Part shown: positions 6,505 to 60,185 of the stretch, piece by piece
Position numbering within the stretch: the first letter of the stretch is position 1
Layout of the letters: the number at the start of each line of letters is the position of its first letter
NCBI GenBank assembly: GCA_964016885.1
Contig: OZ024742.1
Coordinates: forward strand, 36,022,001-36,086,000
DNA: 64,000 bases
Direction: 5' to 3'
Source of the DNA: Eledone cirrhosa
Taxonomy: Eukaryota
Notes under the pieces: model-generated
What the model saw: the letters and a program-made list of their open reading frames with translations, nothing else
What the model was told of the DNA's origin: nothing
The model's database searches: none
Made by a program: the position numbers and the translations under genes

Positions 6505-7199
6505 GAGAGGTATAGAGATTGTTTTAGCAAGAAGCTAACGGCATTCTATAACATATATGCGACTATAACGTCAAGATGGGAAAAGTAGTTAACGAAAGAT
6601 TTAGGAAAAATAACTCAAACTCATCTCAAAAGAGAATCAGGATATAAATTCATCCACAGAATTTAGTAAAATCCAGGGAAAAATCTATAGACCTTTAACT
6701 CATGATAAAATAAAGTTTGAAACACTTATCCTTCAATTTGGAATAACATCAAATGCTCTGTATAGTCTTAAAAGACTATTTCATGAAAACTTTCATTGGA
6801 GATGGTCACGGTTGGATTTCATTCATCAGCAGAGCTCAACAGAAACCAGGGCTCTCACAGTAATATAATCCGAAAAAGGGAATTCTAAAACTGGCTAGTT
6901 TGCCTTTATGTGTAATTGTGAAAAAGCACATGAGGAAAAAACGGGGCTAGTGACGTCAGGATGGAAGTGAATGTTTATTTACAAGAAATAGCAGTCAAAT
7001 ACATTCTGAAAAAAACTCTACAAAAGGAGTTCAGCAAAATAGCAATAATTATCACAGTTTTATGAAAAAAACCGGGATTAGTCACAGATAGTTTAAGCAC
7101 TCTAGGAAAAGAATCCGAGTATAAATATAAATGAGAGGTATAGAGATTGTTTTAGCAAGAAGCTAACGGCATTCTATAACATATATGCGACTATAACGT

Positions 7200-7251: not shown

Positions 7252-7298
7252 AGAGTAAAACAAAGAAGCCTTTAATACATCAAAAGTTTTTATTAGCC

Positions 7299-7333
7299 GT
7301 CAATGTTTCGTCCTATTAAGGACTCATCAGGGC
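7299..7333 (-). ncRNA. Minimal hammerhead motif (family F), partly decayed
   Basis: GCC CUGAUGA GUCCU-UAAU-AGGAC GAAA CA UU GAC; core and stem II are canonical, stems I and III are imperfect. Confidence 0.6.
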
Positions 7334-9137
7334 AATTAAAACAACAAGAAGTAATATCGGCAGATACAAGCCGGAAGCTCCGAAGAATATGGAGTGTACA
7401 TACACTAAAGTCTTGCAAAAATATATAATAAAAATAATAAAAATATATAATAAGAATAACTAAGGATGTATATAACATTAAGAACCATATTACAAATATA
7501 GTCCAAAGCAAATAACCTAGAGTTAAACAAAGGTGGTTATATAGAGCAGGAATTATATATAACACAATGTAATATAATATAATACATTATAATAATATAC
7601 ATTTACCAACATTAAAATTACAATAAAAACAAAAATCAAAAGGTACAATATGCACATGTATATATGTGCGCACACGCACACACACACACACACATACAAC
7701 AATACGCACATCTATCTTCAACTACACAAATTAAACCTTATTAGGAGTTTGAATATAAAAATAAGCATGATAAGAGTGAAAATAATAATAATAATAATAC
7801 CAATACATCTACCCAATATACATGAGGTAATAATATGATATAATTACAAGAAACACATATAATAAATAATAAACAATACAATTATATAATTCAATATAAT
7901 AGATGATCCCCGGTTAATTTACACAAACAATATAGATGTCACAATAATAATATAATAATAATATATTAACAATGTACTAACATTTACAATAAACAGTATA
8001 TAATGGTACTCAAGTAAACAAATCGATTCATACTGGGTTACAGAGTAAATGAGGAAAAATAAATTATACAATACTCAAAAAACATTATGATGGTACAGAA
8101 AAATACAAACATCTTACATGATATATAAAGTTTAAATATCATAATGTTACATATAATGAACAGTAAGTAATAAGGATCAATATTACAATACAATATAATA
8201 TAATATATTATATAAAATAAATTGACATAATATAATATATAATTACTTATAATTACAAGGTTAGTAGACAGACATATGTGGATGTGTAAGTAAGTGCCAG
8301 ACAGTGAATAGTAAATAGTAAATATAATGCCCAGTAGTATTTCAAATAAAATATAGAATATAAAATATAGAATAAAATAAATAAATATAATCAACCGGAA
8401 ATTACAAAACAAAAACAAAGATATACATTTAGGTCTCACATGCGGTTAAGTAGTTAAGTAAAAACTAAGGAAAACAATCCCTGTAAATGACTTGAAAACC
8501 CTATTTGATAAATTAATATTAAAAATATTTAAACTATCCAATAAGGTAGTATAATATTAGCTATAGTTTAAGTCATTAAAGTTTATAAACTTTAATGTTT
8601 CGTTACAAATGTTTACAAAAAGGAATGAAATTTTTTACTATCATATACATAACGATATCTAAAAAACTGACTTAAGTAGAATTAAGGTAGGCTAATGGGG
8701 ACAGAATTGAAGAAATATATGGAGGATGCAAAGGGGCATAAAATATAGTCGATATACTATAATAAATAATAGAACGGAGCGTAAAAGAGGGGGGGGGTTA
8801 AATATAATCATAGTCAATTTGGAGGGGTTGACAATAAGTTTATGTGCGCATGGGGGGGGGGGAGGGGGTATCCAAACATGAATCTGAATAAAGATAAAAA
8901 TAAAATTAAAAATAAAATTAAAAATAAAAATAAAAATAAAAATAAAAATGAGGATAATAATAAAATAAAGTAAATAGCGTAAAGTATGTAATCTTATATA
9001 TATTCACAAGGTGTAATAGTGAAAATTTAATGCGTAAGAAGACAGATATGGTACAGTAGCCAAATGATTATGAGAGCTAGAATAAAGAGTCATCAAAAAC
9101 CAATGATAATAATGATGATAATAATAATGTTGGCAAA

Positions 9138-9236: not shown

Positions 9237-9293
9237 TTCTATTATATATATTTCAAGAGTACCAAAACTTTGGTACGCTCTCATCAGATAAAA
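9237..9293 (-). ncRNA. Minimal type I hammerhead ribozyme (family G)
   Basis: UUUUAU CUGAUGA GAG-C-GUACCAAA..UUUGGUAC-U-CUU GAAA UAUAUA UA AUAGAA. Confidence 0.75.
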
Positions 9294-9895: not shown

Positions 9896-12800
9896 CCGGA
9901 GTGTGTGTTTCACCGACATACAGTCCGGAGTGTGTGTTTCACCGACACACAGTCCGGAGTGTGTGTTTCACCGACACACAGTCCGGAGTGTGTGTTTCAC
10001 CGACATACAGTCCGGAGTGTGTGTTTAACCGACATACAGTCCGGAGTGTGTGTTTCACCGACATACAGTCCGGAGTGTGTGTTTAACCGACATACAGTCC
10101 GGAGTGTGTGTTTAACCGACATACAGTCCGGAGTGTGTGTTTCACCGACATACAGTCCGGAGTGTGTGTTTCACCGACATACAGTCCGGAGTGTGTGTTT
10201 CACCGACACACAGTCCGGAGTGTGTGTTTCACCGACATACAGTCCGGAGTGTGTGTTTCACCGACATACAGTCCGGAGTGTGTGTTTAACCGACATACAG
10301 TCCGGAGTGTGTGTTTCACCGACACACAGTCCGGAGTGTGTGTTTCACCGACATACAGTCCGGAGTGTGTGTTTCACCGACATACAGTCCGGAGTGTGTG
10401 TTTCACCGACATACAGTCCGGAGTGTGTATTTCACCGACATACAGTCCGGAGTGTGTGTTTCACCGACACACAGTCCGGAGTGTGTGTTTCACCGACACA
10501 TAGTCCGGAGTGTGTGTTTCACCGACACATAGTCCGGAGTGTGTGTTTCACCGACATACAGTCCGGAGTGTGTGTTTCACCGACATACAGTCCGGAGTGT
10601 GTGTTTCACCGACACACAGTCCGGAGTGTGTGTTTCACCGACACACAGTCCGGAGTGTGTGTTTCACCGACACACACTCCGGAGTGTGTGTTTCACCGAC
10701 ACATAGTCCGGAGTGTGTGTTTCACCGACATACAGTCCGGAGTGTGTGTTTCACCGACACACAGTCCGGAGTGTGTGTTTCACCGACACACAGTCCGGAG
10801 TGTGTGTTTCACCGACACACAGTCCGGAGTGTGTGTTTCACCGACACACAGTCCGGAGTGTGTGTTTCACCGACACACACTCCGGAGTGTGTGTTTCACC
10901 GACATACAGTCCGGAGTGTGTGTTTCACCGACACACAGTCCGGAGTGTGTGTTTCACCGACATACAGTCCGGAGTGTGTGTTTCACCGACACACAGTCCG
11001 GAGTGTGTGTTTCACCGACATACAGTCCGGAGTGTGTGTTTCACCGACACACAGTCCGGAGTGTGTGTTTCACCGACACACAGTCCGGAGTGTGTGTTTC
11101 ACCGACACACAGTCCGGAGTGTGTGTTTCACCGACATACAGTCCGGAGTGTGTGTTTCACCGACACACAGTCCGGAGTGTGTGTTTCACCGACATACAGT
11201 CCGGAGTGTGTGTTTCACCGACACACAGTCCGGAGTGTGTGTTTCACCGACATACAGTCCGGAGTGTGTGTTTCACCGACACACAGTCCGGAGTGTGTGT
11301 TTCACCGGCACACAGTCCGGAGTGTGTGTTTCACCGACATACAGTCCGGAGTGTGTGTTTCACCGACACACACTCCGGAGTGTGTGTTTCACCGACACAC
11401 AGTCCGGAGTGTGTGTTTCACCGACACACAGTCCGGAGTGTGTGTTTCACCGACACACAGTCCGGAGTGTGTATTTCACCGACATACAGTCCGGAGTGTG
11501 TGTTTCACCGACATACAGTCCGGAGTGTGTGTTTCACCGACACACACTCCGGAGTGTGTGCTTCACCGACATACAGTCCGGAGTGTGTGTTTCACCGACA
11601 CACAGTCCGGAGTGTGTGTTTCACCGACACACAGTCCGGAGTGTGTATTTCACCGACACACAGTCCGGAGTGTGTGTTTCACCAACACACAGTCCGGAGT
11701 GTGTGTTTCACCGACACACAGTCCGGAGTGTGTTTCACCGACACACAGTCCGGAGTGTGTTTCACCGACACACAGTCCGGAGTGTGTGTTTCACCGACAC
11801 ACAGTCCGGAGTGTGTGTTTCACCGACATACAGTCCGGAGTGTGTGTTTCACCGACATACAGTCCGGAGTGTGTGTTTCACCGACATACAGTCCGGAGTG
11901 TGTGTTTCACCGACACACAGTCCGGAGTGTGTGTTTCACCGACACACAGTCCGGAGTGTGTGTTTCACCGACATACAGTCCGGAGTGTGTGTTTCACCGA
12001 CATACAGTCCGGAGTGTGTATTTCACCGACACACAGTCCGGAGTGTGTGTTTCACCAACACACAGTCCGGAGTGTGTATTTCACCGACACACAGTCCGGA
12101 GTGTGTTTCACCGACACACAGTCCGGAGTGTGTTTCACCGACACACAGTCCGGAGTGTGTGTTTCACCGACACACAGTCCGGAGTGTGTGTTTCACCGAC
12201 ATACAGTCCGGAGTGTGTGTTTCACCGACATACAGTCCGGAGTGTGTGTTTCACCGACATACAGTCCGGAGTGTGTGTTTCACCGACACACAGTCCGGAG
12301 TGTGTGTTTCACCGACACACAGTCCGGAGTGTGTGTTTCACCGACATACAGTCCGGAGTGTGTGTTTCACCGACATACAGTCCGGAGTGTGTATTTCACC
12401 GACACACAGTCCGGAGTGTGTGTTTCACCAACACACAGTCCGGAGTGTGTATTTCACCGACACACAGTCCGGAGTGTGTTTCACCGACACACAGTCCGGA
12501 GTGTGTTTCACCGACACACAGTCCGGAGTGTGTGTTTCACCGACACACAGTCCGGAGTGTGTGTTTCACCGACATACAGTCCGGAGTGTGTGTTTCACCG
12601 ACATACAGTCCGGAGTGTGTGTTTCACCGACATACAGTCCGGAGTGTGTGTTTCACCGACACACAGTCCGGAGTGTGTGTTTCACCGACACACAGTCCGG
12701 AGTGTGTGTTTCACCGACATACAGTCCGGAGTGTGTGTTTCACCGACATACAGTCCGGAGTGTGTATTTCACCGACACACAGTCCGGAGTGTGTGTTTCA

Positions 12801-13040
12801 CCAACACACAGTCCGGAGTGTGTATTTCACCGACACACAGTCCGGAGTGTGTTTCACCGACACACAGTCCGGAGTGTGTTTCACCGACACACAGTCCGGA
12901 GTGTGTGTTTCACCGACACACAGTCCGGAGTGTGTGTTTCACCGACATACAGTCCGGAGTGTGTGTTTCACCGACATACAGTCCGGAGTGTGTGTTTCAC
13001 CGACATACAGTCCGGAGTGTGTGTTTCACCGACACACAGT
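9896..13040. repeat. 29-bp tandem satellite (CCGGAGTGTGTGTTTCACCGACAYACAGT), ~109 units, with a 373-bp higher-order repeat distally
   Basis: Near-identical units with no spacers; the CCAAC variant recurs at 11682, 12055, 12428 and 12801. Confidence 0.97.
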
Positions 13041-13169
13041 CACTGTTTAATTATTGTGAATGCTATTCTGGTCCCGGAACCCGGATTACGGTTGGAATTA
13101 CTTCAGCATTTAATCATCGTTTTCAGATTTGCTGGCGGTGGGAGAGCTGCTGAGATAGTGCTAGCTGAG

Positions 13170-13742: not shown

Positions 13743-13921
<179 letters not shown>

Positions 13922-13966
13922 TATTGATGCTCTGAAATAGCGATGTATACATGAATGTATGTATAG

Positions 13967-14034
<68 letters not shown>

Positions 14035-16178: not shown

Positions 16179-16455
16179 ATGTCACTTACTTCTTTTTTCA
16201 GCAAAAGAAGGGAGATAAGCTGACATATCTGTTTCACACTGTTGGTATAAGAATCCAGCCTCTATAATTTTCGGCAAAGGTCGGCGAGTGCTAGTCTCTG
16301 ATGAACACCAACAGTGTGAAACAGATCTGTCAGCTTATCTCCCTACCTTTGCTGAAAAAAGAAGTAAGTGACATCGTCACCACTTTAAAATAATAGCGCA
16401 AGGTCTTCAAAATGTTTTTAATTAAACATACAGTATATTGCTAAATATACTATAC
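16179..16455. mobile_element. Inverted-repeat HHR element, family I (arms 16179-16246 and 16307-16374, plus tail)
   Basis: Arms of ~68 bp; a diverged relative lies at ~52835-53030. Confidence 0.8.
16293..16335 (+). ncRNA. Type I hammerhead ribozyme (family I)
   Basis: AGTCT CTGATGA ACAC-CAACA-GTGT GAAA CAGATCTG TC AGCT; GUC triplet; stem I has a bulge. Confidence 0.8.
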
Positions 16456-16477
16456 ATACATATATATATATATATAT

Positions 16478-16732
16478 ATTTAATTAGAAAGTGAAAAACA
16501 CAAAATATAACTACTCCATTACCAAAGGTTTCTGGATCCTAGACAATCATAATACACGTCTGGATTGGTCGTGAGACAGAGGACCGACCCAGACGTATAA
16601 TATTATTGTCTAGGATCCAGAAACCTTTGGTAATGGAGTAGTTATATTTTGTTTTGTTCACTTTCTAATTAAATAGCTCTGTTCTATACATAGAGCACTC
16701 TTTTTTCTTTGCCTTTCCTTCGGAATTACCTA
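16478..16732. mobile_element. Fold-back element (hairpin 16478-16674 plus tail) with only the 3' half of an HHR
   Basis: Arms of ~90 bp; GAAA CC-TTT-GG TA present, CUGANGA absent; (TA)n-rich flanks. Confidence 0.65.
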
Positions 16733-50242: not shown

Positions 50243-50286
50243 TATAACCGGTTTCGATGTATTAGTAAAATTCATCTTATCAAATG
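50243..50286 (-). ncRNA. Minimal hammerhead motif with U3:A8 core
   Basis: CAU UUGAUAA GAUG...CAUC GAAA CCGG UU AUA; stem I weak; lies in a repeat (~50125-50330) with a relative at ~51195-51420. Confidence 0.6.
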
Positions 50287-51322: not shown

Positions 51323-51370
51323 AATATAATCGGTTTCGTTGTATCGGTGTGGACCATCTTGTCAAATGTT
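51323..51370 (-). ncRNA. Decayed minimal hammerhead motif with U3:A8 core
   Basis: AACAU UUGACAA GAUG...CAAC GAAA CCGA UU AUAUU; followed by a fold-back at ~51360-51510. Confidence 0.5.
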
Positions 51371-52768: not shown

Positions 52769-52815
<47 letters not shown>

Positions 52816-52959
52816 TAACGATGTATATATGAATGTATATATAGTGTATTTTGCAATACACTGTATGCTTAATTTAAAGCATTTGGAAGACCTTACGCTA
52901 TTGTTGTAGAGTAGTGACAGTCTCACTTAATTTAAATTTTCAGCAAACAGGGGAGATAA

Positions 52960-53004
52960 AGCTGACAGAGCTCTGTTTCGTACTTTTTGGTACTTATCAA
53001 AGCT
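52960..53004 (-). ncRNA. Type I hammerhead ribozyme with U3:A8 core (family I relative, element ~52835-53030)
   Basis: AGCU UUGAUAA GUAC-CAAAAA-GUAC GAAA CAGAGCUCUG UC AGCU. Confidence 0.85.
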
Positions 53005-53167
53005 AAGTACTCCACCTGTTTGCTGAAAATCATGAATGTTTGAGTCTTATAGAATTCTAGTAATAATCAGGAACTGATTATACAGAGCGGTTGCCGGTCA
53101 AGCAGAAATTGAAAATTAGAATTGGTGCTCTGAAATAGCGATATATATATGAATGGATATATATATA

Positions 53168-56605: not shown

Positions 56606-56799
56606 ATGCATGTGTATGTCTATAATTTTACATGAGTATACATTTCTACACAAACAGATGCTCCTCTCGACATAGGTGTATATATGTATATATATATATA
56701 TATATATATGCAAAAGACAGACAGAAATAACAAGGCAAACGATACAGTACAATGAAGAGATATATTTTTAGTTTTACGCTTGATATGATAGGAAAAGTG

Positions 56800-56835
56800 T
56801 CTTAACGTTTTGGACGCTAGTCCTTCGTCAGAAAA
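56800..56835 (-). ncRNA. Decayed family A hammerhead (G12 changed to A)
   Basis: CUGACGA A GGAC-UAGC-GUCC AAAA CG UU AAGA. Confidence 0.6.
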
Positions 56836-59784: not shown

Positions 59785-59935
59785 TATAATGATACATGAC
59801 ATACCCTGAGATGTTAAATGGTTAATATTTAATCAAGGTAGTGATTAACCTAAGAGAAAACTCAACATTTATACCCTAATAATGAGAAAATGTACTCATT
59901 GAATCTTGTTTAACTCTTTAATATATATATATATA

Positions 59936-60116
59936 AGACTTTTTTCAAATTCTACACCGCCCGTCCCTTCAATCTATCTTATTTCTCATTCTTATTTCTG
60001 ATGAAGGACTAGCGTCCGAAACGTTAAGACCCCCTTCCTGCTATTTCTACCATTAACCTAATATATTCCTTCCATATACTGTATCGATTGAGTTGTTATT
60101 TATGTTTACCTTTTAC
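59936..60116 (+). mobile_element. Family A pLTR fragment with HHR at ~59994-60029
   Basis: CTGATGA A GGAC TAGC GTCC GAAA CGTT AAGA; aligns to 655-837. Confidence 0.75.
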
Positions 60117-60185
60117 ACACACACACACACACACACACATATTATGTGTTATAGAATCTTGAGTTGATCAATCGCGTCGGTTGAA

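Follow-up and report, generated by a model that had tools for sequence, protein, structure and literature searches.

A Repeat Family and Two Copies of Its Hammerhead Motif

The window, i.e., the whole 64-kb stretch of DNA analyzed here, is rich in microsatellites. Between two (TA)n tracts it holds, on the minus strand, one unit of a repeat family of about 320 nt (52820-53139; GC 34%), in which no protein family was found. The unit is bounded by a 32-nt terminal direct repeat, whose 3'-end copy (52812-52843; repeat family D4, 91% identical) and 5'-end copy (53132-53163; found by repeat comparison) lie 320 nt apart, each adjoining (TA)n. It has the features that define non-LTR retrozymes, namely a length of 150-450 bp, a type I hammerhead, a GC content <50%, and the lack of coding capacity. 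Its folding z-score is -6.4, and that of the opposite strand is -5.1.

The type I hammerhead motif of this unit (copy B; 52960-53004, minus strand) has a U3:A8 core. Its core and stems II and III span 52964-53000 on the minus strand (sequence reading and Rfam HH9 alignment, 24.5 bits), with U3 at 53000 and A8 at 52995. Stem II is GUAC/GUAC (52993-52990 with 52983-52980) with a loop of 6 nt; it is followed by the GAA box (52979-52977), a 12-nt palindromic stem III (52976-52965), and a GUC triplet with C17 at 52964, the predicted cut lying between 52964 and 52963. Stem I (52937-53029, minus strand; fold of -42.7 kcal/mol, z -9.0) consists of 4 bp on the core side (53004-53001 with 52963-52960), UAC in a bulge (53009-53007), and a long distal helix (53029-53016 with 52937-52950). 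As regards a possible tertiary contact between loops 1 and 2, both loop 2 and the UAC bulge agree with the Rfam HH9 consensus; positions 53007 and 52986 vary in at least a third of the reads of run X8 (see below).

A related element lies on the plus strand (copy A; 16250-16465, delimited by alignment to copy B). Its body is 5'-truncated, with (TA)n at its end, and its hammerhead (16293-16335, plus strand; sequence reading, Rfam HH9 15.6 bits, E 0.19) carries a C3:G8 pair (C3 at 16298, G8 at 16303). Here stem II is ACAC/GUGU (16305-16308 with 16314-16317), the palindrome is 10 nt long (16321-16330), and the GUC triplet ends in C17 at 16331. The core-proximal part of stem I is imperfect in both copies, copy A having a mismatch or bulge there. 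The first-pass annotation had described these two motifs exactly, leaving only the strand of copy B (minus) unstated.

Two further pieces of the family occur in the window. Part of copy A is duplicated in inverted, 5'-truncated form at 16179-16246 (minus strand); this duplicate lacks positions 3-9 and differs from copy A by 3 mismatches in 68 nt, one of them in the palindrome. A third family fragment (13917-13967, minus strand) spans the junction between units and sits inside (TA)n. A host target-site duplication was considered as the origin of the 32-nt end repeat and rejected, since the same junction recurs at 13917-13967 and in sequencing reads. Penelope-type insertion is characterized by an inverted 5'-truncated copy, a microsatellite context, and a tail of 30-40 bp (PMC8557442, in the part consulted). 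Comparable traits are present in this small number of copies, namely the inverted truncated arm at copy A, (TA)n at all three copies, and the 32-nt end repeat at copy B. No complete tandem of the ~320-nt unit occurs within the 64-kb window, which holds a monomer and truncated pieces. Of the window's 136 ORFs of at least 90 aa, 35 lying outside long simple repeats were scanned for Pfam domains, and none matched a reverse transcriptase or GIY-YIG domain. Directly after copy A, at 16477-16675, lies a 94-nt inverted repeat (93% complementary, 11-nt spacer).

Homology and Paired Changes

Copies A and B are 75.3% identical over 243 nt (blastn, E 1.6e-37); identity is about 80% in each of three parts, the core and its 5' and 3' flanks. 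The first-pass annotation had named flanks lacking homology as grounds for abandoning its reading, a condition that does not apply: the 3' flanks alone, with the ribozyme excluded, score 130 against a shuffle mean of 31 and a maximum of 58.5 (2000 shuffles). Overall divergence is 19%, and 25 of the 39 differences are transitions.

The type I core (U4 G5 A6 N7, A9, G12 A13 A14, A15.1-U16.1, H17) is complete in both copies. Stems I, II, and III surround it, and the structure is open at stem I. A Watson-Crick 3:8 pair is present in each, U:A in copy B and C:G in copy A, and the other 11 core positions are identical. The palindrome has two more central bases in copy B than in copy A and remains palindromic.

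In total, 42 base pairs were compared between the copies: 33 are identical, 8 show double changes, 1 has turned into a wobble, and no pair is lost. Distal stem I accounts for three of the double changes (all dependent on an ungapped register), stem II for two, and the 3:8 pair for one; the remaining two fall one in each of two 3' hairpins (52843-52882, minus strand), helices picked by eye from both copies. When the comparison is made on a MAFFT alignment, all of 36 pairs remain paired (100%) and 5 of them are double changes, a result equaled by 17 of 500 shuffles; such pair statistics are weak, as they rest on two sequences and the helices beyond the hammerhead were chosen after both copies had been seen. 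Control structures slid along the same alignment are 30-49% paired and show 0 double changes.

The change at 3:8 is a single event between two copies, and the neutral chance of a double transition at a given pair is about 0.015, which is modest. It appears to be the only difference between the copies that is specific to the catalytic fold, lying outside any helix and DNA palindrome. Because 3:8 is a lone tertiary pair, correction of DNA palindromes should not account for the swap. CpG decay was rejected as its source as well, neither position being in a CpG. As judged from the sequences, the matched changes of paired bases likely reflect selection on the RNA.

The Family in Sequencing Reads

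Reads or contigs of four (X1, X4, X6, and X8) of ten listed runs were aligned to 52820-53140 at 80% likeness, a cut-off that disfavors A-type reads. The unit attracted 3394 contigs in X1, 38 in X4, 13 in X6, and 6397 reads in X8, with all identity bands occupied. This spread indicates many divergent copies of the family, read depth not being equal to copy number. In all four runs, joints lead from 53139 to 52820, stepping back 316-320 nt head to tail. Their shorter sides measure 62-70 letters in X1, X4, and X6, compared with the 24 letters that the terminal repeat can explain, and head-to-tail units thus exist somewhere in these genomes. In 16 contigs of X1, a loose end matching the 5' flank of copy A in 26 of 30 letters (counted by eye) runs into B-type sequence at 53045, which means that the A-type, too, exists in multiple copies. 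Read depth rises at 53063-53110 and at 52820-52874, and many reads stop at these limits; it appears that other repeat families share the unit's 5' and 3' hairpin modules.

Both partners of the stem II swaps vary at matching shares. In X8, the change from U-A to C-G (the state of copy A) is found in 353 of 1302 reads at 52992 and in 358 of 1313 at 52981 (0.271 and 0.273), and that from C-G to U-A in 189 of 1304 at 52990 and 196 of 1297 at 52983 (0.145 and 0.151). For both partner pairs the shares match in the other runs too. These are per-site frequencies and not linked molecules, and the RAD reads start at only about 40-65 places. Since position 52972 shows the same pattern, each swap is counted once, as one subfamily event.

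Positions 53000 and 52995 (U3 and A8) are absent from the best 40 of 185 variant rows. In each of those 40 rows the variant share is about one third or higher in at least one run, and B-like reads therefore probably carry U3 and A8 for the most part. The covariation of positions 3 and 8 within the family, as proposed in the first-pass annotation, rests on one event between copies A and B, accompanied by stem II swaps in the reads; its extension to the whole family does not follow, the two positions being absent from those best 40 of 185 rows.

Motif Searches and Other Hammerheads in the Window

A relaxed hammerhead descriptor allowing any letters at positions 3 and 8 gave 13 matches in the 64-kb window (10 C:G, 2 U:A, and 1 G:U). 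In shuffled windows it gave 1.0 per window, of which 0.05 C:G and 0.05 U:A (20 shuffles), and the hammerhead motifs are therefore not due to chance. Neither copy reaches the Rfam gathering threshold of 52 bits (RF02275 and RF00163), copy B scoring 24.5 bits and copy A 15.6 bits. An excess of the bare UUGANAA...GAAA pattern (14 vs. 1.7) was discarded because whole-window shuffles ignore uneven composition, and Rfam microRNA matches in the window were dismissed as microsatellites. Hammerhead pattern scans of metagenomes returned 0 matches; the single match of a viral pattern scan is without hammerhead boxes and was attributed to chance.

At least five hammerhead-bearing families are present in the window. 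A second family, unrelated to the one described above, is found at 50252-50283 and 51334-51365 (both minus strand), with 78% identity over 237 nt and an inverted arm reaching to about 51510. U3 and A8 are present in both of its hammerhead-like motifs, which differ at position 7; their stems are weak or partly decayed, and the relaxed descriptor leaves them unmatched. Minimal-type C3:G8 hammerheads with a long stem II and 8-nt palindromes lie at 9287 (minus), 9403 (plus), 59778 (minus), 20049 (plus), and 50859 (minus), those at 9287 and 9403 forming an inverted pair, as described for Penelope elements. A short C3:G8 hammerhead family with a 4-nt palindrome occurs at 241 (minus), 719 (plus), and 62290 (minus), with relatives at 59922-60121 and 56680-56833 (82-93% identical). 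Finally, a hammerhead motif at 6829 (minus) has an 18-nt palindromic stem III, and 7292-7336 (minus) gives a weak match to Rfam Hammerhead_1 (23.9 bits).

Large repeat arrays occupy other parts of the window. A 24.7-kb array of GGT-rich 30/48-nt units (24696-49378), with extreme GC skew and open frames of >6000 codons, may be either a satellite or a low-complexity coding exon. A 29-nt minisatellite spans 9896-13041 (109 copies, 96% matches).

Predicted Folds and a Possible Mechanism

We put at roughly 78% the probability that copies A and B belong to one ~320-nt non-coding hammerhead family, likely a non-LTR retrozyme, which exists in subfamilies with differing predicted catalytic pairs. It is most likely a non-autonomous Penelope-like element moved by a Penelope-type enzyme. 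Tandem units would be transcribed, and the hammerhead would cleave after GUC, either as a monomer or as a dimer via the palindromic stem III (dimer cleavage of hammerheads is summarized in PMC6765202, part of which was consulted). The unit-length RNA thus freed would be able to circularize, and a Penelope-type reverse transcriptase and endonuclease, acting in trans, would copy it back into (TA)n tracts. Many offspring would arise only from master copies in which both the fold and the 3:8 pair are intact, so that, on this proposal, matched changes would build up between subfamilies.

Owing to the long palindrome, stem III should be able to form either weakly inside a monomer or between two copies. 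Within a monomer this stem is predicted at -1.8 kcal/mol for copy B and 0 for copy A; palindrome duplexes are predicted at -20.1 kcal/mol for B/B, -13.6 for A/A, and -8.7 for A/B. When dimers are cofolded, the best fold is not of the hammerhead type, the method being uninformative for a tertiary fold. In the predicted best fold of each copy, the core is trapped in another helix; this fold is more stable than the hammerhead fold by 2.9 kcal/mol in copy B and by 6.1 kcal/mol in copy A, a possible sign that activity is low or regulated.

A bolder reading is that a single high-copy family holds both catalytic-pair states as amplified subfamilies, with the stem III palindrome serving as a self-recognition code; this is speculative and rather unlikely. 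If true, the path from C3:G8 to U3:A8, perhaps via U3:G8, would be traceable on a tree of thousands of genomic copies, and differing palindromes would confine dimer cleavage to like copies, letting subfamilies diverge.

Weighing the Alternatives

A first question is which property of the RNA has been selected. The fold may have been kept for its stability or for recognition by the reverse transcriptase instead of for cleavage, with the 3:8 swap hitchhiking in a weak or dead ribozyme. Double changes also occur at a distance from the catalytic core, in distal stem I and in the 3' hairpins, and the trapped core of the predicted best fold is of the same tenor. Published work consulted in part lends this idea further weight: minimal hammerheads of Penelope elements cleave poorly in vitro (PMC4209133), cleavage mutants of one Penelope-like element inserted normally in vitro (PMC11167929), and some Penelope clades spread well with no canonical hammerheads (PMC8557442). 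Yet a fold as such does not need the single-stranded core letters, which are the same in copies A and B; moreover, the second, unrelated family likewise keeps U3 with A8, and similarly built retrozyme hammerheads cleave during transcription (PMC7229834, in the part consulted). We therefore regard selection on the fold alone as unlikely. The first-pass annotation had taken the changes to preserve structure and to indicate selection for cleavage. Its structural half holds, given that 0 of 42 pairs are broken; cleavage over fold as the selected trait does not follow from these pairs, insertion of one Penelope-like element having proceeded without cleavage in vitro (PMC11167929). In short, the feature is real and the structural reading right, and covariation throughout the family and a selective role of cleavage are plausible readings of these sequences.

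Two other explanations concern the origin of the repeat and of its matched changes. The repeat could be the terminal repeat (pLTR) of an autonomous Penelope-like element, copies A and B then being 5'-truncated remnants and not a separate small element. The inverted truncated arm at copy A, the (TA)n context, and an end extension of about 30 nt are all Penelope-type traits, and at 53063-53068 and 53110 many reads pass into dissimilar sequence, which means that other repeats share parts of the unit. This origin is nonetheless improbable: in all four runs the joints link the end of the unit back to its start after 316-320 nt, the size and loop of stem II fit canonical HH9 and not the minimal form with long stem II of metazoan Penelope elements (PMC4209133, in the part consulted), and the 35 of 136 window ORFs scanned contain no reverse transcriptase. 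Still less probable, and indeed very doubtful, is that template switching or repair at the DNA level perfected the inverted repeats, with positions 3 and 8 being two independent neutral transitions in copy B. Most double changes do fall in hairpins that are DNA inverted repeats too, and transitions make up 25 of the 39 differences; the 3:8 pair, however, lies outside DNA palindromes, most reads on copy B probably have U3 and A8 (judging by the best 40 of 185 variant rows), and the one-sided variants at 52846, 52972, and 53004 (from those same 40 rows) are G-U on the minus strand and mismatches on the plus strand. A non-LTR retrozyme family thus remains our preferred reading.

Comparison with Known Systems

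Copies A and B are a good example of a known phenomenon, both the swap and the kind of element having been described already. The Watson-Crick 3:8 pair and natural U3:A8 variants, which the first-pass annotation had invoked as established, are indeed in print: in several natural hammerheads U3 and A8 replace C3 and G8 in a covarying manner, and in vitro activity is cited for such ribozymes (Perreault et al. 2011, PMC3088659, in the part consulted). That work is a cross-genome survey, and its consulted part does not follow the swap inside a single repeat family. In Schistosoma mansoni, Cercyon Penelope-like elements carry U3-A8 minimal hammerheads (Cervera and De la Pena 2014, PMC4209133). According to the consulted part of the same paper, these were found by Penelope-element homology after a C3-G8 descriptor had missed them, and a new descriptor yielded about 1,300 hits. 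The earlier remark that CUGANGA-only searches would overlook such motifs is therefore true and was published in 2014 (PMC4209133). The present case confirms this published point that hammerhead searches in repeat-rich eukaryotic genomes need to allow a U3:A8 core; Rfam thresholds miss such motifs too, both copies being below them.

Beyond searches, the two copies offer a naturally matched pair within a family that has many genomic copies, so that the kinetics of both forms could be compared and changes at the catalytic pair followed on a tree. This bears on whether Penelope-type spread needs cleavage. For an Anolis Penelope-like element, the insertion of catalytic mutants was normal in vitro, and the cut site showed no RNA ends, as far as the consulted part of PMC11167929 reports.

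The Cercyon hammerheads resemble copy B in having the same core swap, family homology, compensatory changes, and a palindromic stem III, but their stem II is 7-8 bp long and they have almost no stem III, compared with 4 bp, a canonical-type loop, and a palindrome of 10-12 nt in the family described here (PMC4209133, in the part consulted). Metazoan non-LTR retrozymes have units of 150-450 bp (Cervera and De la Pena 2020, PMC7229834) and have been tied to Penelope-like elements (bioRxiv 10.64898/2026.07.22.740005). In the consulted parts of these two sources, they share with our family head-to-tail units of 150-450 bp, a type I hammerhead, GC <50%, and a non-coding nature, and they also occur as many solo monomers with a proposed Penelope-like origin. 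Circular RNA and cleavage have been demonstrated for the retrozymes, whereas the present family is known from DNA sequence; the same parts make no mention of a U3:A8 core in metazoan retrozymes (PMC7229834, bioRxiv 10.64898/2026.07.22.740005). Rfam Hammerhead_HH9 (RF02275, clan CL00010), on the other hand, has the same layout, and copy B fits it in loop 2 and in the UAC bulge. Unlike HH9, copy B has a U3:A8 core, and its family has a longer palindromic stem III.
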